A stretch of DNA of 64,000 nt from the NCBI GenBank assembly GCA_964016885.1, contig OZ024741.1, forward strand, positions 195,114,001-195,178,000, given 5' to 3'. The notes beneath the pieces are model-generated. The model was not told where the DNA came from. It saw only the letters and a list, made by a program, of their open reading frames with translations, and searched no databases. Positions 1-63,635 of this stretch are shown here, one piece after another (the first letter of the stretch is position 1; each line of letters starts with the position of its first letter). The stretch comes from Eledone cirrhosa (lineage: Eukaryota). The position numbers were made by a program, and so were the translations under genes.

Positions 1-3000
1 CTGCCTATGTTATATATTGTATGTAGCCTATGTTATATATTGTATGCTGCCTATGTTATATATTGTATGCGGCCTGAATTATATATTGCGTGCTGCCTAT
101 GTTATATATTGTATGTGGCCTGTGTTATATATTGTATGCTGCCTACGCTATATATTGTATGCTGTCTATGTTATATATTGTATGTGGCCTATGTTATATT
201 CCCTATGTGGCCTGTGTTATATTTTGTATCTGGCCTAAGTTATTTATTGTATTTGGCCTATGTTATATATTGTTTGCTGCCTATGTTATATATTGTATGC
301 TGCCTATGTTATATTTTGTATGTGGCCTATATTATATATTGTATGCTGCCTATGTTATATTGTATGTGATCTATTTTATATATTGTATGCTCCCTATGTT
401 ATATATTGTATGTGCCTATGTTTTATATTTTATGCTGCCTATGTTATATATTGTATGTGGCCTATGTTATATACTCTATGTGGCCTGTGTTATATTTTGT
501 ATGTGGCCTATGTTATAATTGAAAGTGGGCTATGTTATATATTGTATGTGGCCTATGTTATATATGGTATGCTGCCTATGTTATATATTGTTCGTGGCCT
601 ATGTTATATATTGTATGTTGCCTACGTTATATATTGTATATGGCCTATGTTATATATTGTATGTAATCTACGTTATATATTGTATGCTGCCTACGCTATA
701 TATTGTATGCTGCCTATATTATATATTGTATGTGGCCTATGTTATATACTCTATGTGGCCTGTGTTATATTTTGTATGTGGCCTATGTTATATATTGTAT
801 GCGGCATTGTTATATATTGTTAGTGTCCTATGTTATATATTGTATGGTGCCTATGTTATATATTGTATGTGGCCTATGTTATATATTGTATGCTGCCTAC
901 GTTATATATTGTACGCTGCCTATGTTATTTAATGTATGCTGCCTATGTTATATATTCAATGTAGCCTATGTTATATATTGTATGCTGCCTATGTTATATT
1001 TTGTATGCGGCCTAAATTATATATTGCGTGCTGCCTATGTTGTATATTGTATGTGGCCTCAATTATATATTGCGTGCTGCCTATGTTTTATATTGTATGC
1101 TGCCTATGTTATATATTGTATGTGGCCTATATTATATATTGTATGTGGCCTATGTTATATACTCTATGTGGCCTGTGTTATATTTTGTATGTGGCCTATG
1201 TTATATATGGTATGCTGCCTATGTTATATATTGTTAGTCGCCTATGTTATATATTGTTAGTGGCCTATGTTATATATTGTATGCTGCCAACGTTATATAT
1301 TGTATATGGCCTATGTTATATATTGTATGTGATCTACGTTATATATTGTATGCTGCCTACGCTATATATTGTATGCTGCCTATATTATATATTGTATGTG
1401 GCCTATGTTATATATTCTATGTGGCCTATGTTATATTTTGTATGTGACCTATATTATATATTGTATGCGGCATTGTTATATGTTGTTAGTGGCCTATGTT
1501 ATATATTGTATGTGGCCTATGTTATATATTGTATGCTGCCTACGTTATATATTGTATATGGCCTATGTTATATATTGTATGCGGTATATGTTATATATTG
1601 TACGCTGCCTATGTTATTTAATGTATGCTGCCTATGTTATATATTGTATGCTGCCTATGTTATATTTTGTATGCGGCCTAAATTATATATTGCGTGCTGC
1701 CTATGTTATATATTGTATTTGGCCTGTGTTATATATTGTATGCTGCCTACGCTATATATTGTATGCTGCCTATGTTATATATTGTATGTGGCCTATGTTA
1801 TTTGTTGTATCTGGCCTTTGTCTTATACTGTATGCTGCCCATGTTATATATTGTGTGCTGCCTTTTTTATATATTGTATGTGGCCTATGTTATATATTTT
1901 ACGTGGCCTATGTATTATAATGTATGCTGCCTATGCTATATAACGTATGCTGCCTATGATATATATTCTATGTGGCCTATGCTATATATTGTATGCTGCC
2001 TATGTTATATATTGTATGTGGCCTATGCTACATATTGTATGTAGCCTATGTTATATATTGTATGCTGCCTATGTTATATATTGTATGTGGCCTATGCTAT
2101 ATATTGTATGTGGCCTATGTTATATATTGTATGCCGCCTATGCTATATATTGTATGCTGCCTATATTATATATTCTATGTGGCCTATGTTATATATTGTA
2201 TGCGGTATATGTCATATATTGTATGTTGACTATGTTATATATTGTATGTGGCCTATGTTATACATTGTATGCTGCCTATGTTATATATTGTTAGTGGCAT
2301 ATGTTATATATTGTATGCTGCCTACGTTCTATATTGTATATGGCCTATGTTATATATTGTATGCGGCATATGTTATATATTGTACGTTGCCTATGTTATA
2401 TAAGGTATGCTGCCTATGTTATATATTGTATGTAGCCTATTTTATATATTGTATGCTGCCTATGTTATATTTTGTATGCGGCCTAAATTATATATTGCGT
2501 GCTGCCTATGTTATATATTGTGTGTGGCCTATGTTATATATTGTATGCTGCCTACGCTTTATATTGTATGCTGCCTATGTTATATATTGTATGTGGCCTA
2601 TGTTATATACTCTATGTGGCCTGTCTTATATTTTGTATGTGGCCTATGTTATATATTTTATGTGGCCTATGTTATATATTGTATGATGCCTATGTTATAT
2701 ATTGTATGTGGCCTATGTTATATATTGTATGCTGCCTATGTTATATATTGTATGTGGCCTATGTTATGTATTGTATGCTGCCTATGTTATATATTGTTAG
2801 TGACCTATGTTATATATTGTATGCTGCCTATGTTATATATTGTATGTGGCCTATGTTATATATTGTATGCTGCCTACGTTATATATTGTATATGGCCTAT
2901 GTTATATATTGTATGCGGTATATGTTATATATTGTATGTGGCCTATGTTATATACCCTATGTGGCCTGTGTTATATTTTGTATGTGGCCTATGTTATATA

Positions 3001-6000
3001 TTGTATGTGGCCTATATTATATATTGTTTGCTGCCTATGTTATATATTGTATGCTGCCTATGTTATATATTGTATGTGGCCTATATTATATATTGTATGC
3101 TGCCTATGTTATATTGTATGTGATCTATTTTATATATTGTATGCTCCCTATGTTATATATTGTATGTGCCATATGTTTTATATTGTATGCTGCCTATGTT
3201 ATATATTGTATGTGGCCTATGTTATATACTCTATGTGGCCTGTGTTATATTTTGTATGTGGCCTATGTTATAATTGAAAGTGGCCTATGTTATATATTGT
3301 ATGTGGCCTATGTTATATATTGTATGCTGACTACGTTATATATTGTATATGGCCTATGTTATATATTGTATGTGATCTACGTTATATATTGTATGCTGCC
3401 TACGCTTTATATTGTATGCTGCCTATATTATATATCGTATGTGGCCTATGTTATATACTCTATGTGGCCTGTGTTATATTTTGTATGTGGCCTATGTTAT
3501 ATATTGTATGCGGCATTGTTATATATTGTTAGTGTCCTATGTTATATATTGTATGGTGCCTATGTTATATATTGTATGCTGCCTACGTTACATATTGTAC
3601 GCTGCCTATGTTATTTAATGTATGCTGCCTATGTTATATATTGTATGTAGCCTATGTTATATATTGTATGCTGCCTATGTTATATTTTGTATGCGGCCTA
3701 AATTATATATTGCGTGCTGCCTATGTTATATATTGTATGTGGCCTGTATTATATATTGTATGTGGCCTATGTTATATATTGTTTGCTGCCTATGTTATAT
3801 ATTGTATGCTGCCTATGTTATATACCCTATGTGGCCTGTGTTATATTTTGTAAGCGGCCTACGTTATAAATTGTATGCTGCCTATTTTATATAGTGTATG
3901 TGGCCTAGGTTATATATTGTATATGGCCTATGTTATATATTGTATGCTGCCTATGTTATATACTCTATGTGGCCTATGTTTTATATTGTATGTTATCTAT
4001 GTTATATATTGTATGTTGCCTATGTTATATATTGTATGTGGCCAATGTTATATATTCTATGTGGCCTATGTTATTTATTGTAATCTGCCTACGCTATATA
4101 TTGTATGCTGCCTATGTTATATATTGTATGTGGCCTAATTTATATACTCTATGTGGCCTGTGTTATATTTTGTGTGTGGCCTATGTTATATATAGTATGT
4201 GGCCCATGTTATATATTGTATGTTGCCTATGTTATATATCGTATGCTGCCGATGTTATATATTTATGTGGCCTATGTTATATATTGTATGCTGCCTACGC
4301 TATATATTGTATGCTGCCTATGTTATATATTGTATGTGGCCTATGTTATATACTCTATGTGGTCTGTGTTATATTTTGTGCGTGGCCTATGTTATATATT
4401 GTATGCGGCATATATTTTATATTGTATGCTGCCTATTTTAAATTTTGTATGCGGCCTATGTTATACATTGTATGTGGTCTATGTTATATATATTATTCTG
4501 CCTATGTTATATATTATAATCTAACTATGTTATATATTGTATGATGCCTATGTTATATATTTTATGTGGCCTATGTTATATATTGTATTCTGTCTACGCT
4601 ATATATTGTATGCTGCCTATGTTATATATTGTATGTGGCCTATGTTATATATTGTATGCTATCTATGTTATATATTGTATGTGGCCTACGTTATATATTG
4701 TATGCTGCCTATACTATATATTGTATGTGGCCTATGTTATATACTCTATGTGGCCTGTGTTATAATTTGTGTGTGCCCTATGTTATATATTGTATGTAGC
4801 CCCTGTTATATATTGTATGCGGCATATGTTTTATATTGTATGCTGCTTATTTTATATTTTGTATGTGGGCTATGTTATATATTGTAATTCACCTATGTTA
4901 TATATATTATTCTACCTATGTTATATATTATATTCTACCTATGTTATTATTGTATGATGCCTATGTTATATATTGTATGCTGCCTATGTTATATATTGTA
5001 TGTGGCCTATGTTATATGTTGTATGTTATCTATTTATATATTGTATGCGGCATATGTTATATATTGTATGCTGCCTATGATATATATTGTATGTGGCCTG
5101 TGTTATATTTTGTACGTGGCCTATGTTATATATTTATGTGGCCTGTGTTATATTTTGTATGTGGCCTATGTTATATATTGTATGTTGCCTTTGTTATATA
5201 TTGTATGCTGCCTTCTTTATATATTATATGCTGCCTATGTTATGTACTCGATGTGGCCTGTGTTATATTTTGTATGTGGCCTATGTTATATATTGTATGT
5301 TGCCTATGTTATATATTGTATGTTGCCTATATTATATATTGTATGTGGCCTATGTTATATACTCGATGTGGCCTGTGTTATATTTTGTATGTGGCCTATG
5401 TTATATATTGTATGTTGCCTATGATATATATTGTATCTTGCCTATATTATATTTTCTGTGTTGTCTATGTTATATATTGTAAATGGCCCATGTTATATAT
5501 TGTATGCGGCATATGTTATATATTGTAATTGGCCTATGTTATATATTGTATAATGCCTATGTTATATATTGTATGTGGCCTATGTTACATATTGTATGTG
5601 GCCTATGTTATATATTGTATGCGGCATATGTTATATATTGTATGCTGCCTATGTTATATATTGTATGTGGCCTATGTTATATTTTGTATGTGGCCTATGT
5701 TATATATTGTATGCTGCTTATGTTATATATTGTATATGGCCTATGCTATATATTTTAAGCTGCCTATATTATATATTGTATATGGCCTATGTTATATATC
5801 GTAAGCTGCCTATAATATATATTGTATGTGGCCTATGTTATATATTGTATGTGGCCCATGTTATATATTGTATGAGGCCTATGTTATATATTGTATGCTG
5901 CCTATGTTATATATTGTTAGTGGCCTATGTTTTATATTGTATGTTGCCTATGTTATATATTGTATGTGGCCTATGTTATATACTCTATATGACCTGTGTT

Positions 6001-9000
6001 ATATTTTGCATGTGGCCTATGTTATATATTGTATGTTGCCTATGTTATATAATGTATGCAGCATATGTTATATATTGTATGCTGCCTATGTTATATATTG
6101 TATGCTGCCTATGTTATATATAGTATGCTGCCTATGTTATATATTGTATGTGGCCTATGTTATATATTGTATGCTGCCTATGTCAAATATTGTTTGTGGC
6201 CTATGTTATATATTGTATGCTGCCTATGTTATATATAATGTATGCTGCCTATGTTATATATTGTATGCTGCCTTTGCTATATATTGTATGTGGCCTATGT
6301 TATATATTGTATGGGGCCTATGTTATATATTGTATGCTACTTATGCTATATATTGTATGATGCCTATTGTATACATTGTATGCGGCATATGTTATATATT
6401 ATATGCGACCTATGTTATATATTGTATGCTGCCTATGTTATATATTGTATGTGGCCTATGTTATACATAGTCAGCGGCCTATGTTATATATTGTATGCTG
6501 CCTATTTTATATAGTGTATGTGGCCTAGGTTATATATTGTATATGGCCTATGTTATATATTGTATGCTGCCTATGTTATATATTGTATGTGGCCTATGTT
6601 ATATATTGTATGTGGCCTATGTTATATATTGTATGCGGCCTACGCTATATATTGTATGCTGCCTATGTTATATATTGTATGTGGCCTATGTTATATATTG
6701 TATGCTGTCTATGCTATATATTGTATGCTGCCTATGTTATATATAGTATGTGGCCTATGTTATATAATCTATGTGGCCTGTGTCATATTATGTGTGTGGC
6801 CTATGTTATATATTGTATGCTGCCTATTTTATATAGTGTATGTGGCCTAGGTTATATATTGTATATGGCCTATGTTATATATTGTATGCTGCCTATGTTA
6901 TATATTGTATGCTGCCTATTTCATATATTGTATGTGGCCTATGTTATATATTGTATGTGGCCTATGTTATATATTGTATGCTGCCTACGCTACATATTGT
7001 ATCTGCCTATGTTATATATAGTATGTGGCCTATGTTATATAATCTATGTGGCCTGTGTCATATTTTGTGTGTGGCCTATGTTATATATTGTATGTGGCCT
7101 ATGTTATATATTGTATGCGGCATAAGTTTTATATTGTATGCTGCCTATTTTATATTTTGTATTCGGACTATGTTATATATTGTAATTGGTCTATGTTATA
7201 TCTATTCTTCTGCCTATGTTATATATTATATTCTACCTATGTTATATATTGTATGCTGCCTACGTTATATATTGTATGCCGCCTATGTTATATATTGTAT
7301 GTGGCCTATGTTATATATTGTATGTGCCATATGTTATATATTGTATGTGCGATATGTTTTATATTGTATGCTGCCTATGTTATATATTGTATGTGGCCTA
7401 TGTTATATATTGTATGTGGCCTATGTTATATATTGTATGTGGCCTATGTTATATATTGTATGCGGCATATGTTATATATTTTATGCTGCCTATGTTATAT
7501 ATTGTATGTGGCCTATGTTATATATTGTATGCTGCCTACGTTATATACTGTATGCGGCCTATGTTATATATTGTATGCTGCCTATGTTATACATTGTATG
7601 CTACCTATCTTATATATTGTATGCTTTCTATATTATATATTGTATGCTGCCTATATTATATATTGTATGTGGCTTATGTTATATATAATATGCTGCCTAT
7701 GTGATATATTGTATGCTGCCTATTTTATATTTTGTAGGCGGCCTATGTTATACATTGTATTCTACCTATGTTATATATTGTATGATGCCTATGTTATATA
7801 TTGTATGTGGCCTATGTTATGTATTGTATGTGTTCAATGTTATATATTGTATGCTACCTATGTTATATATTATATGCTGCCTATGTTATATATTGTATGC
7901 TGCCTATGTTATATATTGTATGTGGCCTATGTTATATACTCTATGTGGCCTGTGTTATATTTTGTGCGTGGTTTATGTTATATATTGTATGTGGACCATG
8001 TTATATATTGTATGCGGCATATGTTTTATATTGTATGCTGCTTATTTTATATATTATATGCTGCCTATGTTATATATTGTATGCTGCCTATGTTATATAT
8101 TGTATGCTGCCTACGTATATATTGTATGCTGCCTATGTTATATATTGTATGTGGCCTATGTTATATACTCTATGTGGCCTGTGTTATATTTTGTGTGTGG
8201 TTTATGTTATATATTGTATGTGGCCCATGTTATATATTGTATGTGGCATATGTTTTATATTGTATGCTGCTTATTTTATATTCTGTATGCGGCCTATGTT
8301 ATAAATTGTAATTGCCCTATGTTATATATATTATTCTACCTATGTTATATATTATATTCTACCTATGTTATATATTATATTCTACCTATGTTATATACTG
8401 TACGATGCCTACGTTATATATTGTATGTTGTCTATGTTATATATTGTATGCTGCCTATGTTATATATTGTATGTGGCATATGTTATATATTGTATGCTGC
8501 CTATGTTATATATTGTATGTCGACTATGTTATATATTGTATGTGGCATATGTCATCTATTGTATGTGGCCCATGTTATATATTGTATGTGGCCTATGTTA
8601 TATATATTATTCTGCCTATGTTATATATTATATTCTACCTATGTTATATATTCTACGATGCCTATGTTATATATTGTATGCTGCCTATGTTATATATTGT
8701 ATGTTACCTATGTTATATATTGTATGCTGCCTACGTTATATATTGTATGTGGCCTATGTTATATATTGTATGCTACCTATGTTATATATTGTATATGGCC
8801 TATATTATATATTATATTCTACCTATGTTATATATTGTATGATGCCTATGTTATATATTGTATGTGGTCTATGTTATATATTGTATGTGTCCTATGTTAT
8901 ATGTTGTATGCTACCTATGTTACATATTGTATGTTGCCTATGTTATATATTGTATGTGGCCTATGTTATATATTGTATGCTGCCTAGGTATATATTGTAT

Positions 9001-12000
9001 GCTGCCTATGTTATATATTGTATGTGGCCTATGTTATATACTCTATGTGGCCTGTGTTATATTTTGTGTGTGGCCTATGTTATATATTATATGCTGCCTA
9101 TGTTATATATTGTATGTGCCATATGTTTTATATTGTATGCTGCCTATGTTATATATTGTATGTGGCCTATGTTATATATTGTATGTGGCCTATGTTATAT
9201 ATTGTATGCGGCATATGTTATATATTGTATGCTGCCTATGTTATATATTGTATGTGGCTTATGTTATATATTGTATGCTGCCTATGTTATACATTTATGT
9301 CGCCTATGTTATATATTGTATGCTGCCTATGTTATATATTGTTAGTGGCCTATGTTTTATATTGTATACTGCTTATATTATATATTGTATGTGGTCAATG
9401 TTATATATTGTAAGCTGCCTATATTATATATTGTATGTGGCCTATGTTATATAATGTATGCTGCCTATGTTATATATTGTATGCTGCCTTTGTTATATAT
9501 TGTATGTGGCCTATGTTATATATTGTATGGGGCCTATGTTATATATTTTATGCGACCTATGTTATATATTGTATGCTGCCTATGTTATATATTGTATGTG
9601 GCCTATGTTATACATTGTATAGGGCCTATGTTATATATTGTATGCTGCCTATTTTATATAGTGTATGTGGCCTAGGTGATATATTGTATGTGGCCTATGT
9701 TATATATTGTATGCTGCCTATGTTATATATTGTATGTGGCCTATGTTATATATTGTATTCGGCCTATGTTATATATTGTAATTGGTCTATGTTATATCTA
9801 TTATTCTGCCTATGTTATATATTATATTCTACCTATGTTATATATTGTATGATGCCTATGTTATATATTGTATGTGGCCTATGTTATATATCGTATGCGG
9901 CATATGTTATATATTGTATGCTGCCTATGTTATATAATGTATGTGGCCTATGTTATATATTGTATGTGATCTATTTTATATATTGTATGCTGCCTATGTT
10001 ATATATTGTATGTGCCATATGTTTTATATCGTATGCTGCCTATGTTATATATTGTATGTGGCCTATGTTATATAGAGTATGTGGCCTATGTTATATATTG
10101 TATGTGGCATATGTTATATATTGTATGCTGCCTATGTTATATATTGTATGTGGCCTATGTTATATATTTTATGTGGCCTATGTTATATATTGTATGCTGC
10201 CTACGTTATATATTGTATGCGGCCTATGTTATATATCGTATTCTGCCTATGTTATACATTGTATGCTACCTATCTTATATATTGTATGCTGTCTATATTA
10301 TACATTGTATGCTGCCTATGTTATATTTTGTATGTGGCTTATGTTTTATATTATATGCTGCCTATGTGATATATTGTATGTTGCCTATGTTATATATTGT
10401 ATGTTACCTATGTTATATATTGTATGTTGCATATGTTATATATTGTATGTGGCCAATGTTATATATTGTATGTGGCCCACGTTATATATTGTATGCTGCC
10501 TATGTTATATATTGTATGTGGCCTATACTATATATTATATTCTACCTATGTTATATATTGTATGCTGCCTATGTTATATACTCTATGTGGCCGGTGTTAT
10601 ATTTAGTCTGGGGCCTATGTTATATATTGTATGTGGCCCATGTTATATATTGTATGCGGCATATGTTTTATATTGTATGTCGCCTATGTCATATATTGTA
10701 TCCTGCCTATGTTATATATTGTTAGTGGCCTATGTTTTATATTCTATGCTGCCTATGTTATATATTGTATGTGGCCTATGTTATATATTGTAAGCTGCCT
10801 ATTTTATATATTGTAAGTGGCCTATGTTATATAATGTATGTTGCCTATGTTAAATATTGTATGCTGCCTTTGTTATATATTGTATGTGGCCTATGTTATA
10901 TATTGTATGGGCCCTATGTTATTTATTTTTTGTTGGCCTATGTTATATATTGTATGTGGCCTATGTTATATATTGTATGATGCCTATTGTATACATTGTA
11001 TGTGGCCTATGTTATCTATTATATGCGGCCTATGTTATATATTGTATGCTGCCTATGTTATAAATTGTATGTGGCCTATGTTATATATTGAATGTAGCCT
11101 ATGTTATACATTGTTTGCTGACTATGTAATACATTGTATGCTGCCTGTGTTATATATTGTATGCTGCCTATGTTATATATTGTATGTGGCCTATGTTATA
11201 TATTGTATGTGGCCTAATTTATAAACTCTATGTGGCCTGTGTTATATTTTGTGTGTGGCCTATGTTATATATTGTATGTGACCCATGTGATATATTGTAT
11301 GTGGCCCATGTTATATATTGTATGTTGCCTATGTTTTATATTGTATGCTGCCTATGTTATATATTGTATGTGGCCTATGTTATATATATTATTCTGCCTA
11401 TGTTATATATTATATTCTACCTATGTTATATATTGTATGATGCCTATGTTTTATATTGTATGCTGCCTATGCTATATATTGTATGTGGCCTATGTTATAT
11501 AATGTATGCTGGTTATGTTATACATTGTATGCGACATATGTTATATATTGTATGCTGCCTATGTTATACTTTGTATGCTGCCTATGTTATATATTGCATG
11601 CTGCCTATGTTATACATTGTATGTTGCCTATGTTATATATTGTATGCTGCCTATTTTATATATTGTATGCCGCCTATGTTATATACTTTTTGCGGCCTCT
11701 GTTATATATTGTATGCTGCCTATGTTATACATTGTATGCGGCCTCTGTTATATATTGTATGCTGCCTATGTTATATATTGTATGTGGCATATGTTATATA
11801 TTGTATGCCGCCTATTTTATATATTTTTTGCGGCCTCTGTTATTTATTGTCTGTTGCCTATGTTATACATTGTATGCGGCCTATGTTATACATTGTATGC
11901 AGCCTATGTTATATATTGTATGCTGCCTATTTTATATATTGTATGCTGCCTATGTTATATATTGTATGCGGCCTATGTTATATATTGTATGCTCCCTATG

Positions 12001-15494: not shown

Positions 15495-15684
15495 AGGGCG
15501 GTGGATTGGCAGTATCAGTAGAGAGTCGGACGCCATGCTTTCCAGCATAGTTACGTCCCTTTACGGTCTGAGTTCAAATCCCGCCGAGGTTAACTTTGCC
15601 TTTCATCCTTACGGGGTCGGTAAAATAAAGTACCAGTAATGTACTGGGTAATTGCTGGCCTTGTGCCAAAAGTAGAAACAATTA
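15495..15684 (+). mobile_element. tRNA-derived SINE (cephalopod-type)
   Basis: A-box-like TGGCAGTATCAG, B-box GAGTTCAAATCC, body GCCTTTCATCCTTACGGGGTCG..AAGTACCAGT. Further copies at 31186, 48291 and 49140. Confidence 0.85.
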
Positions 15685-15701
15685 TATATATATATATATA
15701 T

Positions 15702-16046
15702 CCTTTCTCCGCCCCATCTCTCTCTGCTCCCCTTACTACTTTCTCTCCTACTCACTTCCGTTTTCCTTCGTCTCTTCCTCTCAGCGCCTGTTCTCACTAC
15801 GACCAGACGTTATTTTCTCTCTCTCCCGCTTGTTGTTAGAACGGGTTCAGAACTTATGTTCGGCCTAAATATTAACCCCCCCCCCCCGGTTACTACCAAA
15901 CTTTCATGTACTGCTGCTTCGTCTTTTCCTCTTTCCCTATCGTAAGATGGATTGTCTTTCATGCGTTCGAAATATCAATGATCCACAGAAGATAGCCGAT
16001 GAGCTGGAATTGTCCTTGTGTTTGTATTTCTCTCATGTCTTCTAAA
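15702..16046 (+). mobile_element. Diverged member of the pyrimidine-rich non-coding repeat family carrying the scrambled-hammerhead motif
   Basis: CTCACT-rich tract, then tgtcttt..gcgttc-GAAATATC-aatgat..gaagatag-CCGATGA, resembling 26051, 45240 and 62984. Confidence 0.5.
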
Positions 16047-25564: not shown

Positions 25565-25640
25565 AATGAGATTAAAAACCTTTTTTGTATAACAAACCGT
25601 GTCACTTTTCTTTCCTGATTTATATATATATATATATATA

Positions 25641-26183
25641 GTCTCGCTCATTTCTTCTCATGTTTTTTATATATATTTTCCCCAGCTGCGTTTGTCTGTT
25701 TCTCTCTTACTGCTTCCCCCCTCTCTCTGTTTCTCTCACCTTCTTTCGCCCCTCTGTCAGTTACACTTTCTCTCGACTGGCCTCTTTCTCGCACTTCCAC
25801 TCACTCACTCTCTGCTTCTCCCCTTCTCACTTCCTCCCGTTTGGCCTGAAGTGGGGTCCTTTCTTGCTCACACCTCACTCGCGTCGGACGGTCTGTAGTC
25901 TCTCGCCCAAGAAATCCACACAGCTAAAGCTGATCGGACTCCCATGTGCTTGTTTTTTCCTATCTTTGCGCTGCTATCCTTCTATGTTTGTTTACTTGTC
26001 TCGCTCGCTTTACGCGATTTACTGTCCCAATAGCTTTATTTAGCTATTGCTCGCACCAACTGGAGGTATATGATTTTTAAAGCGATGAAATACCAATGAA
26101 GGTTGGAAAATCACTGATGAAGGATTATTTTTATCATATGTAACCCATGTGCAACCACGCAGTATTCATTCTTCTCATATTTT
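25641..26183 (+). mobile_element. ~520-nt non-coding pyrimidine-rich repeat with terminal redundancy and scrambled-hammerhead motif
   Basis: Colinear with 44809-45376. cttctcat-tttt occurs at both ends. Motif at 26051-26120. TA-flanked. Confidence 0.75.
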
Positions 26184-26256
26184 ATATATATATATACGTC
26201 TAAAGGCTTGTGTGGGTATGTGTGTGTATATATATGTGTATATGTGTATACATATG

Positions 26257-30559: not shown

Positions 30560-31720
30560 AGAATATACACTAACACAGCATGATGGATTTATATGAGACC
30601 TATTCCACAAAAATATACCAGAACAAACCAACATCACTTACACCGAAATGCTGATTGTACGTAGTCTGAAATGGAACACACTACTTTGCGACGGAGAGAT
30701 AGCTACCACCGCCACTGACCATTTCAATATCAAGTCAAGTCTATTGCCTCCTAGAGTTAGAGAACTAGCACCATTTGAAGCGGACTTATTACAAATGATT
30801 AAGAATATAAATTCTGTAAGTACTATAACAATTTCCAAGCTAAACTTTTACATGATATCAAATTTAAATTTTCTAAAAATATTTTTGTCTTTTCTGATTA
30901 AACTAAAAAACTCATACGAAGTAGATACACCTAAACATAATCAACTGTTACTTAATAATGTCACTAATAAATATCAGAAAGCCAAACCAACCACCTACAA
31001 TAGTATCAACAATGAAGCTAAAGATATTGCTAAACACTTAAAGATAGATAAAAGAATGGAAAGCTTAGCCAATCGTAGTCCTTATATTACTTTGAAGGAT
31101 CATAAACAAGACTTTAATAATTGTTTCCACTTTTGGCCAATCGTAGTGTTTATATTACTTTGAAGGATCATAAACAAGACTTTAATAATTGTTTCCACTT
31201 TTGGCACAAGGCCATCAATTACCCAGTACATTACTGGTACTTTATTTTATCGACCCCGTAAGGATGAAAGGCAAAGTTAACCTCGGCGGGATTTGAACTC
31301 AGACCGTAAAGGGACGTAACTATGCTGGAAAGCATGGCGTCCGACCCTCTACCGATACTGCCAATCCAGTCCTAGTTGTAGATTGATAAACCCCACTAAA
31401 ACTGAAATAGGATTAGCCAGTCAGAAGATACTAAAAGATATAAATAAATGTACAAATAGTAAAGCTAACCTATTAGAGTGGATTAATATGTCTTCATTAA
31501 TATCTTGACTTAACAATATCCCTGATAAAAATAAAGCTAGGTTCACACAATTTGACATAACGGACTTTGCTCTTTATTACTCATTCACTATTTGATAGAG
31601 CTTTAGACTTTGTTCGCAGCTTCGGCTCCGTCTCCGGCCAGGAAATAGATGTAATTATGCACACCAAAATAATATTACTGTTTATCATCGACTCCACATG
31701 GGTTAAAAAGATCAAACCCA
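30560..31720 (+). pseudogene. Decayed N-terminal/RT part of a PLE ORF (same lineage as 40029-42182), interrupted by a SINE
   Basis: KNIP, ELAPFEADLLQMIKNI, YITLKDHKQDF / PSCRLINPTKTEIG, RFTQFDI. Confidence 0.8.
31186..31368 (-). mobile_element. tRNA-derived SINE
   Basis: Reverse complement of 15500-15684. Confidence 0.87.
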
Positions 31721-35190: not shown

Positions 35191-36077
35191 CACATATTTG
35201 ACAATGCCAGGACCCGTTGTATTTCAGCGTACTCAATAGATAATGCAGAATATATTCCAGAGTATAAACATAGTTATTCGCTCCAATACAACACACGTAA
35301 ACGGGTGCTTATATTAGTTCCCGGACTCGAGTTTTGGCCACACTTAATGCAGCAGTAGAGTGCACTGCACCCTCTGTCTGCATATATTATGAAACAATTC
35401 ATAATCGGCGCATGTGGATTCATCAGCGGGCATTGCCTAATCCTTAACCAATCGATCGACAGAATTCAACTCCAGTCCATGCCGGCTATGACTGTATGTA
35501 ACGGCCGACACAGTAAAGTGACTATATATATATATATATATATATATTTCGTTTCTGAATTTGTTTAGCAAGATTCTTTATCTGAAATCGTGTGTTGAAA
35601 CCGATATTGTTATACTTTGGGAGGGTCATGTTGCCAATAAGAAACACACGCACCAGTTGCTTTCACTTCAATTTATTATATATTTATAAATTTATAAATT
35701 TACAAATCTACAAACTTATAAATTTCTGGTTGGTTGGTTGGTTCCACAACCAGATAGTTGTTTATATATATAGTCATAGTCCTTTCGTCACACACTCTGT
35801 GACCTCTTCAGTGACTGGGGATTCCTTTCTTCGTTTCTGTGCCTTTTCTTTTTTTATCCTACGCCATTTTGTTTCTGTGTGTGTGTGTTGTGTGCTCAGT
35901 TTGCGCATGTGCCACATCCGGGTGTCTGTGTGTGTTTGTGTTCATTTTTCTATTTGTTTATTTATTTATTGTTGGTTGGTTGTTTGTTCTATGTGTGTGT
36001 GTGTTTTCATTTTGTCCTGTGTGTGTTTTCAATTGTAAGTTGTTTGTTCTATGTGTGTGTGTGTTTTCATTTTGTCC

Positions 36078-36929
36078 TTAATTGTAAGTTGTGATGTTGC
36101 TGTTCCACTCATATTTTCTATTTAATTTTGGTTTTAATTCTTTTATGCTTACTGCCTCTGTAATTTGCCTAAACATTGCGTCTTTTCTGTGTGTGGATTC
36201 TATTTTTATTTCTATGCTCTCTAATCTACCCCTGTGTTCCATCTTAGCATGTTGGTAGAGCACAGATGATTCTTTATTATCTTGGAGGTCTCGCCAGTGT
36301 TCATTTATTCGTTCCCCTATACTACGAGCTGTCTCACCTATGTACACTATATTTTTGTTTCTACATTGTCCCTCAGTACATCTTATGCTATACACTACAT
36401 TTCTAGTTTTACAGTTAATATGGGGGCTTATTTTACAGGTTATACATTTCTTATCTATACATGAGGGTCTTTGGAACGGGTATGTCTTGCTAATAAGTGT
36501 TTTTACGGAGGTACCAGGTCTTTCTACTATCTTAATATTGAGATTATGTTTATTTAGGGCCCTTCTAAATTTGTAGGCTAGTTCGCCTCTAGGGGTTGTA
36601 TTGATGAACATTACACTCTGGTATTTATTGCTATCATACCATGAGTTTATTCTATTGGCCTTGTTCCTAGTTCTTTCTATTCTATTCCAAAATTTGCTCC
36701 TATACAAGGGGCAGGTCCCATTTATGTCATTATTTACCATTTTTTCCCATTTGGTTCTGGCTCCGTTATACACTCTGATTCTATCTCTCTGATTGTAGCC
36801 AGAGAACTGCATACGGTGGATGAAGTGTTGTATGTGTCTCTCTAGTTCTTCGGGGTTGCACATGCGGGACACATTTCTCATCACCCGTACCAAATCCGCA
36901 ATCAGTATGTTGATTTTGGTATGGACCAT
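36078..36929 (-). CDS. Mirror 283-aa PLE GIY-YIG ORF
   Basis: Inverted copy differing at three residues (V/D, A/T, N/K). Confidence 0.7.
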   Translation of the reverse strand: MVHTKINILIADLVRVMRNVSRMCNPEELERHIQHFIHRMQFSGYNQRDRIRVYNGARTKWEKMVNNDINGTCPLYRSKFWNRIERTRNKANRINSWYDSNKYQSVMFINTTPRGELAYKFRRALNKHNLNIKIVERPGTSVKTLISKTYPFQRPSCIDKKCITCKISPHINCKTRNVVYSIRCTEGQCRNKNIVYIGETARSIGERINEHWRDLQDNKESSVLYQHAKMEHRGRLESIEIKIESTHRKDAMFRQITEAVSIKELKPKLNRKYEWNSNITTYN

Positions 36930-37772
36930 ACCAAAATCAACATACTGATTACGGATTTGGTACGGGTGATGAGAAATGTGTCCCGCATGTGCAACCCCGA
37001 AGAACTAGAGAGACACATACAACACTTCATCCACCGTATGCAGTTCTCTGGCTACAATCAGAGAGATAGAATCAGAGTGTATAAAGGAGCCAGAACCAAA
37101 TGGGAAAAAATGGTAAATAATGACATAAATGGGACCTGCCCCTTGTATAGGAGCAAATTTTGGAATAGAATAGAAAGAACTAGGAACAAGGCCAATAGAA
37201 TAAACTCATGGTATGATAGCAATAAATACCAGAGTGTAATGTTCATCAATACAACCCCTAGAGGCGAACTAGCCTACAAATTTAGAAGGGCCCTAAATAA
37301 ACATAATCTCAATATTAAGATAGTAGAAAGACCTGGTACCTCCGTAAAAACACTTATTAGCAAGACATACCCGTTCCAAAGACCCTCATGTATAGATAAG
37401 AAATGTATAACCTGTAAAATAAGCCCCCATATTAACTGTAAAACTAGAAATGTAGTGTATAGCATAAGATGTACTGAGGGACAATGTAGAAACAAAAATA
37501 TAGTGTACATAGGTGAGACAGCTCGTAGTATAGGGGAACGAATAAATGAACACTGGCGAGACCTCCAAGATAATAAAGAATCATCTGTGCTCTACCAACA
37601 TGCTAAGATGGAACACAGGGGTAGATTAGAGAGCATAGAAATAAAAATAGAATCCACACACAGAAAAGACGCAATGTTTAGGCAAATTACAGAGGCAGTA
37701 AGCATAAAAGAATTAAAACCAAAATTAAATAGAAAATATGAGTGGAACAGCAACATCACAACTTACAATTAA
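36921..37772 (+). CDS. 283-aa PLE C-terminal ORF (thumb/linker + GIY-YIG endonuclease, no RT core)
   Basis: Uninterrupted ORF: C-x4-C-x2-C..C, NVVYSIRC, YIGETARSIGERINEH, RQITEAV, LNRK. Confidence 0.7.
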   Translation: MDHTKINILITDLVRVMRNVSRMCNPEELERHIQHFIHRMQFSGYNQRDRIRVYKGARTKWEKMVNNDINGTCPLYRSKFWNRIERTRNKANRINSWYDSNKYQSVMFINTTPRGELAYKFRRALNKHNLNIKIVERPGTSVKTLISKTYPFQRPSCIDKKCITCKISPHINCKTRNVVYSIRCTEGQCRNKNIVYIGETARSIGERINEHWRDLQDNKESSVLYQHAKMEHRGRLESIEIKIESTHRKDAMFRQITEAVSIKELKPKLNRKYEWNSNITTYN

Positions 37773-38869
37773 GGACAAAATGAAAACACACACACACATA
37801 GAACAAACAACTTACAATTGAAAACACACACAGGACAAAATGAAAACACACACACACATAGAACAAACAACCAACCAACAATAAATAAATAAACAAATAG
37901 AAAAATGAACACAAACACACACAGACACCCGGATGTGGCACATGCGCAAACTGAGCACACAACACACACACAGAAACAAAATGGCGTAGGATAAAAAAAG
38001 AAAAGGCACAGAAACGAAGAGAGGAATCCCCAGTCACTGAAGAGGTCACAGAGTGTGTGACGAAAGGACTATGACTATATATATAAACAACTATCTGGTT
38101 GTGGAACCAATCAACCAACCAGAAATTTATAAGTTTGTAGATTTCTAAATTTATAAATTTATAAATATATAATAAATTGAAGTGAAAGCAACTGGTGCGT
38201 GTGTTTCTTATTGGCAACATGACCCTCCCAAAGTATAACAATATCGGTTTCAACACACGATTTCAGATAAAGAATCTTGCTAAACAAATTCAGAAACGAA
38301 ATATATATATATATATATATATATAATTATTCCGGGTTCAATCGGGGGTAACCACAGTAAGTAGGGTACTCAATACATAGAGTATAAATGTTTTAATATA
38401 GAAAAGCTTCTATAGGACTAGAACTGTTTCATTCGTGAGAAATCATAAGGAAGCTGACTGTCCAAGTAAGTAGTGGTATTTATATCTGTTCTTTTCTGGT
38501 AGTAGGAGAGGGTGGGGATTGGGATGGGTGGAGGTCATTGGTTGATGGGTTTAAAGAAAATTGAATTCATTAAAAGCTAATTCTTTAAAGCTATCATTTA
38601 TACTAAGAGTGACAAAGGCAGAAAAAATACGGTAAATAGGTTTAAATTGGAATACCAATCCTTGTTTTTAAGTATCTCTTAAACTAACAAAGCCTGTATG
38701 TCAGGTGTCTACAGGATGGGTAGGGTTCATTGGTTTAAAGAAAAGGGAATTCTTTAAAGCTGAATTTAGGATGACAAAGGCATAAAGAAATCTATAAAGA
38801 GGTTCAAGTTTTGGGGTGCTTCCCCTTATTGTGAAGTTTCTCTTAAGCTATATTCCGGGTGTCGGCAAG

Positions 38870-44808: not shown

Positions 44809-45376
44809 AACCATGCAGTATTCTTCTCCCCATATTTTTCACATATATTTACCTAAACTGCGATTCTGTGTTTCTCTCTTTCTCTCTTACTGCTCCCTCG
44901 TTCTCTCTGTTTCTCTTACTTTCTTTCGTCCCCTCTGTCATGTCAGTTAACACTTTCTCTCTACTGACCTCTTCCTCGCACTTCCACTCACTCACTCTCT
45001 GTTTCTCCCCTTCTCACTTCCCCCGTCCGCTACGAACCCGATTTTCCTTCTTTCTTACATCGGATTCACTAGCGGAAGGTCTGTTTTTTATTCGCACATG
45101 TATTCACCCAGCTTATACTGACAGGATAACCATGTTGCTTGTGTTTCTTTCTATCTTCGGTTAGCTTTCCCCTGTGTTGTTTACTTGTCTCACTCGCTTT
45201 ACGCGTTTCAATTGTCCTAATAACTTATTTCAGTTATTGTCGCACCAACGTGAGGTATATGATTTTTAATGCGATGAAATACCAATGATCGTTGGCAAAT
45301 CACTGATGAGGTACTCATTTTATAACATGTAATCCATGTGCAACCATGCAGTATTCTTCTCCCCATATTTTTCACA
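44809..45376 (+). mobile_element. 533-nt non-coding unit with exact 35-nt terminal redundancy and scrambled-hammerhead motif
   Basis: aaccatgcagtattcttctccccatatttttcaca at 44809 and 45342. Motif at 45240-45309. TA-flanked. Confidence 0.85.
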
Positions 45377-57093: not shown

Positions 57094-58210
57094 AATTAAG
57101 TTAAAAAAGTACATCTACATATGCATACTGAAATACTAGTGTGTATATGAATACACACACGTATACATATGTATATGTAACAAGTCTTTCACTGGTTGCT
57201 TTACTGTGAGCACCCAGCTATTCTGTATGTAAACACACAGACAAACCGGTTTTTAGAGTCATACTGGTTTTTGAGGGAACACCTTCCCTCTATTCTCCAG
57301 AAAGCCAGACAAGGAATATTGAACTAGTTTCGTTGTTGTTACAACTCATCAGCAATATTTACCTATCTACCGGCCCTTCTGGAGAATTGTAAAAGCACAT
57401 ATCGTTATATGCTTTTTCTATGAAAATTAGTAGTGGGCAGACTAATTTGCATAGAGTGTGAGTACGCACCGGTTCAGCGGAGACGATAAAAACAAATAAC
57501 GAAACGAAATTAAATTTCGTTTCGTTTGTAACTCACTTTTGTATGACTGACGCTTAAACAATTAAGTTAAAAAAGTACATCTACATATGCATACTGAAAT
57601 ACTAGTGTGTATATGAATACACACACGTATACATATGTATATGTAACAAGTCTTTCACTGGTTGCTTTACTGTGAGCACCCAGCTATTCTGTATGTAAAC
57701 ACACAGACAAACCGGTTTTTAGAGTCATACTGGTTATTTGTTTTTATCGTCTCCGCTGAACCGGTGCGTACTCACACTCTATGCAAATTAGTCTGCCCAC
57801 TACTAATTTTCATAGAAAAAGCATAACGATATGTGCTTTTACAATTCTCCAGAAGGGCCGGTAGATAGGTAAATATTGCTGATGAGTTGTAACAACAACG
57901 AAACTAGTTCAATATTCCTTGTCTGGCTTTCTGGAGAATAGAGGGAAGGTGTTCCCTCAAAAACCAGTATGACTCTAAAAACCGGTTTGTCTGTGTGTTT
58001 ACATACAGAATAGCTGGGTGCTCACAGTAAAGCAACCAGTGAAAGACTTGTTACATATACATATGTATACGTGTGTGTATTCATATACACACTAGTATTT
58101 CAGTATGCATATGTAGATGTACTTTTTTAACTTAATTGTTTAAGCGTCAGTCATACAAAAGTGAGTTACAAACGAAACGAAATTTAATTTCGTTTCGTTA
58201 TTTGTTTTTA
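57094..58210. mobile_element. Retrozyme-like 466-nt unit: 1.4 tandem copies (-) fused to one inverted, circularly permuted copy (+)
   Basis: Repeat starts at 57094 and 57560; inversion at ~57733. aatattg-CTGATGA-gttgt aaca acaac-GAAA-ctag-TT^caatatt at 57872-57916 (+) and 57315-57359 (-). Confidence 0.92.
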
Positions 58211-62936: not shown

Positions 62937-62968
<32 letters not shown>

Positions 62969-62971
<3 letters not shown>

Positions 62972-63540
62972 TAAAGTGGTCCTTCATTAGTGATCTTCCA
63001 ACCATCACAGGTATTACTTCGCTTTAAAGACCATATACCTCCGGTTGGTGCGAGCAACGGCTAAAAAAAGTCGTTGGGACATGTAAATAAAGGGGACAGC
63101 GAGAGTGTAAACAAACAAAGATGGTGAAGCAACGAAAGGTGAAGAAGAACGAGTCAAGTCCCAAATTTCCATGAATATAAGTTCAGTGAAATCGTGAACG
63201 AGAGAGAATAAAGACCATCAAACCTGGTTGGAATGTGAGCAAGGAAGGAATTCCGTACAGGTCTAACGGGAGGAAGAAGGGATCTAGTCTGTGAATTCGG
63301 TGAACGTAAGTTCTGTGAAATCGTAGACGAGAGAGAGAAAAAAGGCGAACCAGCCTGACCAAGCGTGCGAAAGAAAAGAATTACGCACAGGTCAAACGGG
63401 AAGAACGAGGAGGAGAAGAGGTAGTAACTGAGAGTGAGTGAGTGAAGGGTGAGGAAGTGGATAACAGAGAGAGTGACTGTTAGAGAAGGTAAAGTTACAG
63501 AGAAAGAGGAAGCAGTAAGAACGAAATAGACGGGTCACAG
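62969..63540 (-). mobile_element. Third member of the scrambled-hammerhead repeat family
   Basis: Minus strand: tcgcaccaaccggaggtatatggtctttaaagcgaagtaatacctgtgatggttggaagatcactaatga; upstream pyrimidine tract with ctcactcactctc. Confidence 0.75.
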
Positions 63541-63635
63541 CTGATGAAAACGCAGATGTCATCACATGATGATATTTGTTTTTGAAATGCGCATAATAAA
63601 ATACTTGGAACTCTTTTAACCATCTTTTGATCTTA

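Follow-up and report, generated by a model that had tools for sequence, protein, structure and literature searches.

A structured RNA motif of roughly 100 nt, located at positions 45214–45314 (+) of the 64,000-nt stretch of Eledone cirrhosa DNA analyzed here (the window), is real and deeply conserved as judged by sequence comparison. There is little doubt about the fold described below, and self-cleavage of the predicted hammerhead core is probable. On balance, we favor a reading in which this core, with its blocks in the order S-G-C and with block C split, would cut tandem transcripts and so provide circular templates for target-primed reverse transcription (TPRT). The original prediction of a hammerhead-like RNA outside types I–III is upheld by the block order and by the Rfam searches; the motif shows neither the circular C-G-S block order nor the model match of Rfam types I, II, and III. 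Its proposal of a new hammerhead topology was not sustained, as the S-G-C order has already been published as type SGC (Eckert et al., 2023; PMC10085705). New features are the split of block C, the additional helices P0 and H, and a kink-turn-like link; also new are its presence in animal genomes and its location in the 3′ UTR of RT-RLE retrotransposons.

From 5′ to 3′, the first half of the motif consists of P0, hairpin H, the stem II 5′ strand, the helix B 5′ strand, (N)GA, the stem III 3′ strand, UH, and the stem I 5′ strand, and the second half of TAA, the stem II 3′ strand, GAAA, the stem III 5′ strand, NNN-GA-N, the helix B 3′ strand, the stem I 3′ strand, CUGANGA, and the P0 3′ strand. 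All parts of the copy near 45k lie on the + strand. The P0 5′ strand (45214..45217) pairs with the strand just 3′ of CUGAUGA, and is followed by hairpin H (45218..45239); both helices covary in the ORF-less families A–G described below, H is also present in RLE elements, and P0 reaches 10–12 bp in autonomous elements. The original extent of the motif (45240–45309) was too short, having overlooked this closing helix and hairpin. The stem II 5′ strand (45240..45244; strand D of the original prediction) shows two-sided change in 5/6 pairs, and the proposal that this TCGC strand is the stem II partner was confirmed, as the upstream strand pairs over 5–6 bp in 17/17 sequences. A canonical stem II downstream of CUGANGA was rejected, with 0–3 bp there vs. 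5–6 bp upstream in all 17, a comparison in which the script chose a slipped register for families B–D. Helix B, which corresponds to the helix linking stems I and II in type SGC, is formed by strands at 45245..45250 and 45290..45295, with two-sided change in 5/6 pairs and 97.6% of cells paired in the 14-sequence alignment. The predicted kink-turn has its non-bulged strand (3n, 2n, 1n) at 45251..45253 (NGA in families A–E, U at 2n in F) and its bulged strand (3-nt bulge, G1b, A2b, 3b) at 45284..45289, where GA are the commonest letters in A–F and the bulge is variable. Block S (45254..45265) holds the stem III 3′ strand, U16.1, A17, and the stem I 5′ strand, and the predicted cut at 45259/45260 agrees with the site proposed originally, after GGUAUA. 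The TAA that links stems I and II (45267..45269) is kept in families A–G and in RLE family R3. Alignment and pairing place block G (stem II 3′ strand, position 11.1, GAAA, and stem III 5′ strand) at 45270..45283 and the 5′ part of block C (stem I 3′ strand and CUGAUGA) at 45297..45309, followed by the post-A9 nucleotide and the P0 3′ strand (45310..45314), in which this copy has one P0 base unlike its family. Position 10.1, which G45239 is able to provide here, is supplied by the upstream strand in family F, the RLE families, and most metagenome matches (G-C being the commonest pair), has the tail as its sole possible source in B, D, and E (A-U, G-C), and would be part of an A·A mismatch in C. 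As the source of 10.1 varies by family, P0 and H are inserted either just before or just after it.

Hammerhead blocks C, G, and S were defined by Eckert et al. (2023), who described the S-G-C order as type SGC (HRIMA-1; PMC10085705). These RNAs cleave as isolated transcripts of ~80 nt at 0.007–0.19/min, and activity requires stems I–III together with the I–II helix (PMC10085705). The topological class is therefore not new, and a dimer is not needed for activity. The present motif shares with type SGC the block order, a stem I–II linker of ~3 nt, a helix that connects the distal ends of stems I and II, and the core letters described there. Unlike type SGC, it places the 5′ strand of stem II and the strand of the linking helix upstream of block S, so that block C is split rather than contiguous; it has P0 and H in addition; and a kink-turn-like loop connects both strands of stem III with helix B. 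As far as its accessible text goes, the published study assumes that block C cannot be interrupted, its descriptor being CUGAUGA[U]G followed directly by stem II (PMC10085705); because block C is split here, that descriptor cannot match, and the motif breaks the published rule against interrupting the CUGANGA block. The SGC examples in that text derive from metatranscriptomes, with no genome of a known organism among them (PMC10085705). Non-circularly permuted hammerheads, known mainly from metatranscriptome and metagenome contigs, can now be placed in animal chromosomes.

The link between stem III and helix B may bear on a question raised in the SGC study, where the distal ends of stem III and of the I–II helix were sometimes directly joined, yet lie far apart in the crystal structure (PMC10085705). 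The kink-turn consensus comprises a 3-nt bulge, then G·A and A·G, with a C-G closing pair (PMC5061560), and by sequence the stem III–helix B join fits it in families A–E and RLE family R2. Families F, R1, and R3 differ in having U or A at 2n, as in documented Kt-23-like variants (PMC5061560), and family G has a U/A-rich bulge instead. A kink-turn is thus a candidate structural answer to how stem III reaches the I–II helix: together with helix B it would fold stem III back against the upper ends of stems I and II and close the double pseudoknot within a monomer, while P0 and H would stack outside the core beside A9/10.1. The original prediction allowed that the motif might be active as a dimer, for which tandem units would provide the two copies; the nested fold does require the B–III loop to reach the base of its own arm. 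Activity solely as a strand-swapped dimer is very unlikely, however, as published SGC RNAs with a comparably short III–B link cleave as isolated ~80-nt transcripts (PMC10085705), and a crude triangle for a 50° kink (arithmetic only) gives 17–20 Å from the end of helix B to the core, matching a stem I of 6–7 bp. The dimer part of that proposal is accordingly unneeded, and its hammerhead-like RNA stands. Two points weigh against an active core: the two helices beside A9 could disturb it, and the split block C breaks the SGC assumption. In the 3′ regions of family R2 (L305, L308–L311), the H loop is complementary to 7 nt lying ~13 nt past CUGANGA, a possible pseudoknot.

Within the window, a motif check and a profile search bore out the three copies and one remnant reported originally. 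The profile matches exactly four copies (E-values 3.7e-17, 1.9e-16, 1.7e-14, and 5.9e-6), all where they had been placed. The 45k copy belongs to an ORF-less family A element (44810..45376, +) of ~1.06 units of 533–534 nt, flanked by (TA)n and with its initial ~34 nt repeated at the 3′ end. A second copy (26024..26125, +) belongs to the young family B, with a unit of 519–522 nt, in an element at ~25640–26185. A third (62979..63080, −), in an element at ~62966–63590, represents family C (unit 620–637 nt) and has a damaged core. The deviations noted earlier for it, GTAA and CTAATGA, are genuine, but they mark a damaged copy, the commonest letters of the family being GAAA and CTGATGA. The "decayed" copy near 16k is indeed a remnant (15942..16010, +), but rather than a decayed relative it is an internally deleted member of a distinct, deeply diverged family, E, having lost its P0, H, stem II 5′, and B 5′ strands. 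The host assembly of 3.0 Gb, which is rich in (TA)n, yielded first-look candidates for families A (1465), B (2083), C (1437), and E (275) by DNA search, the best 40–43 of each being scored, and three further families came from flanking sequences, namely D with 127 candidates (100% identity among the top copies), F with 1145, and G with 880. The profile detected 4 copies in a sample of 40 stretches of 10 kb spaced evenly over the genome, or ~1 per 100 kb, which extrapolates to roughly 30,000 copies per genome with a wide Poisson error and for large chromosomes only. Elsewhere in the window, a 23-bp tandem satellite occupies positions 1–12000 (~470 overlapping register matches), and a 184-nt inverted pair (15502–15685 and 31185–31368; 97% identical) is presumably a tRNA-derived SINE.

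Support for the fold comes from pairing across families. In a fixed, gapless alignment of 14 sequences and 72 columns, which avoids choosing registers by eye, 95.7% of 322 cells are paired, compared with 30–44% in slid registers. Two-sided change affects 19/23 pairs, none of 500 shuffles pairs as well, and the covariation score is 0.81 vs. 0.09–0.15 in slid controls, although the number of further pair types is no better than in shuffles (111/500). By helix, 98.8% of cells are paired in stem I, 86.9% in stem II, and 100% in stem III. When the commonest letter per column was taken for each of the seven own-genome families, 222/231 cells paired (shuffle maximum 183) and 28/33 pairs showed two-sided change, with helix registers here picked by eye and the P0 register of F one off. 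The four deep lineages alone gave 127–129/132 paired cells vs. ~88 when shuffled. Covariation had been claimed for two helices; both do covary, but two is too few, as all four helices and also P0 and H covary. Stems I–III flank a hammerhead core in which CUGANGA, GAAA, and UH with an A15.1-U16.1 pair are present, and CTGATGA and GAAA are kept in the family consensus. Among loci chosen by similarity to the query, and allowing U4C, the core is intact in 39/39 copies of A, 35/36 of B, 18/18 of D, 24/34 of F, 13/16 of G, 22/42 of C, and 10/24 of E. Positions 10.1/11.1 form A·A in family C, and family E mostly has U4C; U4C and weak or mismatched stem II bases occur in natural hammerheads (PMC3088659).

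A chance or artefactual origin was ruled out by this alignment together with descriptor shuffles, metagenome pairing, and RLE 3′ regions. When an unbiased genome sample of 400 kb was scanned with a relaxed S-G-C descriptor, six matches were obtained (four clear, two doubtful), against none in any of five shuffles; the doubtful matches, L108 and L120, were left out of copy counts. The former (L108:5693–5800, −) has a possible upstream stem II pairing and could represent either an old eighth family or a chance match. Nested energy folding, which is blind to pseudoknots, scores the 45k copy like its shuffles (z −0.08); it gives z from −0.08 to −1.37 for A, B, D, and E and about −4.1 for R1 and L235, and returns the B–III arm. 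No described Rfam family matches the motif copies, either among the best 150 of 169 matches in the window or at six other loci. Elsewhere in the window, two HH9-like canonical hammerheads lie in an inverted repeat at 57299–57370 (−) and 57861–57932 (+) (38.6 bits, gathering 52, E 3e-6), probably part of a separate type I retrozyme or PLE repeat.

The motif is not confined to ORF-less elements. A metagenome search with a pattern of single-stranded letters and spacing, without pairing constraint, gave 16 matches, of which 10, from five lineages, pair in stems I, II, III, and B; the simulated chance of passing this four-helix pairing is 8.4e-5. The six that fail it were discarded as chance matches. 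Because the pattern itself prescribed the kink-turn and TAA letters, these matches are no test of them. Seven of the ten paired matches lie just 3′ of the stop of an RLE-type ORF (two of them read by eye in broken frames), one is at a contig end, and two have no RLE ORF within 600 nt. One C-terminus (L235) is identical to that of P0001, a 1132-aa RT and zinc-knuckle protein that matches RVT_1 with an E-value of 1.5e-17 and zf-RVT weakly. Its top match in the PDB, covering the RT region, is R2 (E 7e-21), and its named relatives occur in teleosts, sturgeon, and amphioxus. The single ORF encodes RT, zinc knuckle, and a C-terminal RLE, the RLE motif having been recognized by reading the sequence. 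We take the clade of these autonomous carriers within the R2 superfamily to be probably HERO. Among GTDB pattern matches, 5/6 fail pairing; the sixth (L246, an L231/L234-type motif) pairs in all four helices and is likely animal host DNA in a bacterial bin. Viral contigs gave zero pattern matches and no RLE relative. A pairing search among 17 sequences found no clear P0 in L229 and L237. These AT-rich contigs, which carry the core motif but lack a nearby RLE ORF, possibly represent another host group or non-autonomous copies.

In the cephalopod genome itself, 33/109 RLE 3′ regions found by protein search pass the descriptor, vs. 0–1 in 10 shuffles (sampled among the matches listed, 150 of 22,129 first-look candidates, with some loci overlapping); many of those that fail are truncated or decayed. 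In the passing elements, N7 varies between U and A, while A, U, and C all occur at position 17. At least three RLE families (R1–R3) show the full layout by inspection, with P0 of up to 12 bp right after A9, and R4 is less clear. Among the matches listed, none of 110 sampled loci is a young RLE partner, all autonomous copies being decayed. Within-family likeness is 98–100% in A, B, and D vs. about 88–96% in R1. Since all sampled RLE copies are old, the enzyme for the young ORF-less families is the weakest link of our reading. No homology between ORF-less units and RLE loci was seen outside the motif, likely neighboring insertions aside. The RLE remnants L298–L300 have identical flanks on C18 and C28, which suggests segmental duplicates rather than young insertions.

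Insertion structures are informative about the template. ORF-less tandem units carry one motif each and have periods of 507–765 nt (A 530–534, B 519–522, C 620–637, D 642–765, E 507, and F 549), and their longest ATG ORFs are 55–65 aa in A, C, D, and F units (60 aa in one A unit) and 132 aa in one E unit. The motif had been described as the end of the repeat, which it is not: 3′ ends lie 69–123 nt beyond the predicted cut, and tandem units exist. These ends are fixed, falling overall 69–134 nt past the cut, with modes at +122 in A (23/31), +123 in B (31/33), and +108 in D (11/14), and with alternative internal ends in C (+69/+109) and D (+108/+117/+124). A TA repeat follows in 27/31 copies of A, 30/33 of B, 12/14 of D, and 37/38 of C, the 3′-end count for C being biased because the query included the tail. 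The 5′ ends, by contrast, are scattered; a partial copy often precedes a full unit, and copies often exceed one unit. Fixed 3′ ends, scattered 5′ ends, and tandem junctions agree with a circular or concatemeric template that is reverse transcribed from a priming site within it, and by these sequence signs such a template is reasonably likely. The autonomous R1 family has a 3599-nt unit that also occurs as a partial tandem; at L278, a 610-nt 3′ piece precedes a full unit, and 4/29 printed loci share a letter-identical junction from 3′ tail into 5′ UTR. R2-type reverse transcriptases perform end-to-end template jumping, so that tandems could also arise on linear RNA by jumps from one 5′ end to the 3′ end of the next RNA, the ribozyme serving only to trim or stabilize. 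That most R1 copies are simple 5′-truncated monomers would agree with this explanation; the letter-identical junction at four loci, the tight unit periods (530–534; 519–522), and the internal 3′ ends in C and D, which show priming inside a continuing template, make it improbable.

If a circular template arises by cleavage, some insertions might be expected to bear a trace of the cut. Near the predicted site, 115 copies have 5′ boundaries, compared with 44 at an upstream and 120 at a downstream control; given the latter, the totals show no enrichment. In a hand count, position −1 is mismatched in 32/100 listed copies, or ~23 after 6 internal deletions and 3 inversions are removed, against 5/100 (~2 without such variants) and 7/44 (~4) in the controls, so that exact starts at the predicted cut without microhomology are in excess. 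TATA microhomology confounds this excess. Of 30 inspected loci, 8 had neither microhomology nor an upstream motif, one of them an inversion. The footprint is no more than suggestive. A recurrent deletion from helix B to the cut between two TGA words (L335, L345, and other matches) takes out the kink-turn strand and the stem III 3′ strand.

The same boundaries could be read differently. The fold may be a protein-recognition module for the RLE reverse transcriptase, with cleavage slow or silent, or serving to destroy unbound transcripts, and tandems formed by uncut read-through. The motif does lie in the 3′ UTR, the region where R2 proteins are described to bind their template, most insertions read through the predicted cut, and boundary totals are unenriched there. 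However, its invariant single-stranded letters, in R1–R3 as well, are exactly the hammerhead catalytic set (with N7 free and 17 non-G), and exact junctions are in excess at the cut in the hand count. We therefore regard a pure recognition module as unlikely and retain the active ribozyme.

A different doubt concerns the enzyme. Even with an active ribozyme, the ORF-less families could be retrozymes mobilized by Penelope-like elements (PLEs), e.g., Naiads, after acquiring the motif from an RLE element. They insert at (TA)n and show partial tandems as well as inverted 5′ pieces, all described as Penelope/Naiad hallmarks (PMC8557442); motifs on both strands occur at 6/35 C and 6/19 F loci, GIY-YIG/RT elements are present, and type I retrozymes have been linked to PLEs (PMC7229834; bioRxiv 10.64898/2026.07.22.740005). 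Yet the motif is absent from 7/7 PLE-like or PLE-adjacent stretches, and RLE elements themselves carry the motif along with the same partial-tandem layout, TA-adjacent ends, and inversions. Mobilization by Penelope enzymes is thus a minority possibility, though one to be reckoned with, and an RLE enzyme seems, from these sequence features, to have slightly better than even chances of being the mobilizer of families A–G. The window also contains, at 35523–38325, a near-perfect 2.8-kb palindrome with Penelope-like GIY-YIG fragments on both arms.

In the mechanism we favor, tandem transcripts would be cut by the ribozyme into unit-length RNAs, and a genomic copy with two intact motifs could yield a monomer RNA that is ligated to a circle. 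The circle would then serve as the TPRT template. At a nicked (TA)n target, priming would take place at a CATAT-like or CAAC site within it; an enzyme running round the circle would leave 5′-truncated, 1.x-mer, and tandem insertions, and families A–G would borrow the RLE enzyme in trans. More broadly, and only tentatively, an R2-like LINE lineage of fish and invertebrates may replicate via ribozyme-made RNA circles, using a fourth non-circular hammerhead wiring, and may have spawned high-copy circular-RNA parasites; a host L7Ae-family protein could switch the kink-turn. Standard descriptors and Rfam miss the motif, of which a single genome carries roughly tens of thousands of copies and which also occurs in a widespread lineage of retrotransposons. 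If the mechanism holds, circular templates would give LINEs a new mode of spread, and template circularization would be a second use of ribozymes in LINEs, with a bearing on RNA-templated gene insertion and circRNA production.

A literature search returned no report of the motif; subscription journals, Repbase, and bioRxiv supplements were outside its reach, and a prior description is therefore possible. The term "type-SGC" was found nowhere beyond PMC10085705, and nothing was found for HERO with hammerhead or for hammerhead with kink-turn, four-way junction, and retrotransposon. In the accessible text of 2026 reviews on R2, 5′ HDV-like ribozymes are the only ribozymes mentioned.

Among known systems, the ORF-less families resemble the non-LTR retrozymes of animals, which are described as low-GC tandem units without ORFs and with one hammerhead each, and for which circular RNA intermediates have been proposed (PMC7229834; bioRxiv 10.64898/2026.07.22.740005). 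Those retrozymes, however, carry type I hammerheads and are linked to PLEs, whereas here an SGC-order motif is shared with RLE LINEs, and their typical size of ~170–400 nt (family range 51–972 bp; bioRxiv 10.64898/2026.07.22.740005) compares with 500–760 nt here. Penelope-like elements with hammerheads in their pLTRs show similar partial tandems, inverted 5′ pieces, microsatellite targets, and a ribozyme in terminal repeats, but they encode a GIY-YIG endonuclease and have minimal type I hammerheads, and no SGC motif was present at the PLE-like loci checked. The autonomous carriers resemble RT-RLE elements of the R2 superfamily in their single ORF (RT, zinc knuckle, and a PD..E-x-K-type endonuclease), fixed 3′ ends, and 5′ truncation. 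They differ from R2 in that its described ribozyme is HDV-like and located at the 5′ end, whereas theirs is a hammerhead-type motif in the 3′ UTR, and in that some of them continue into a second unit.
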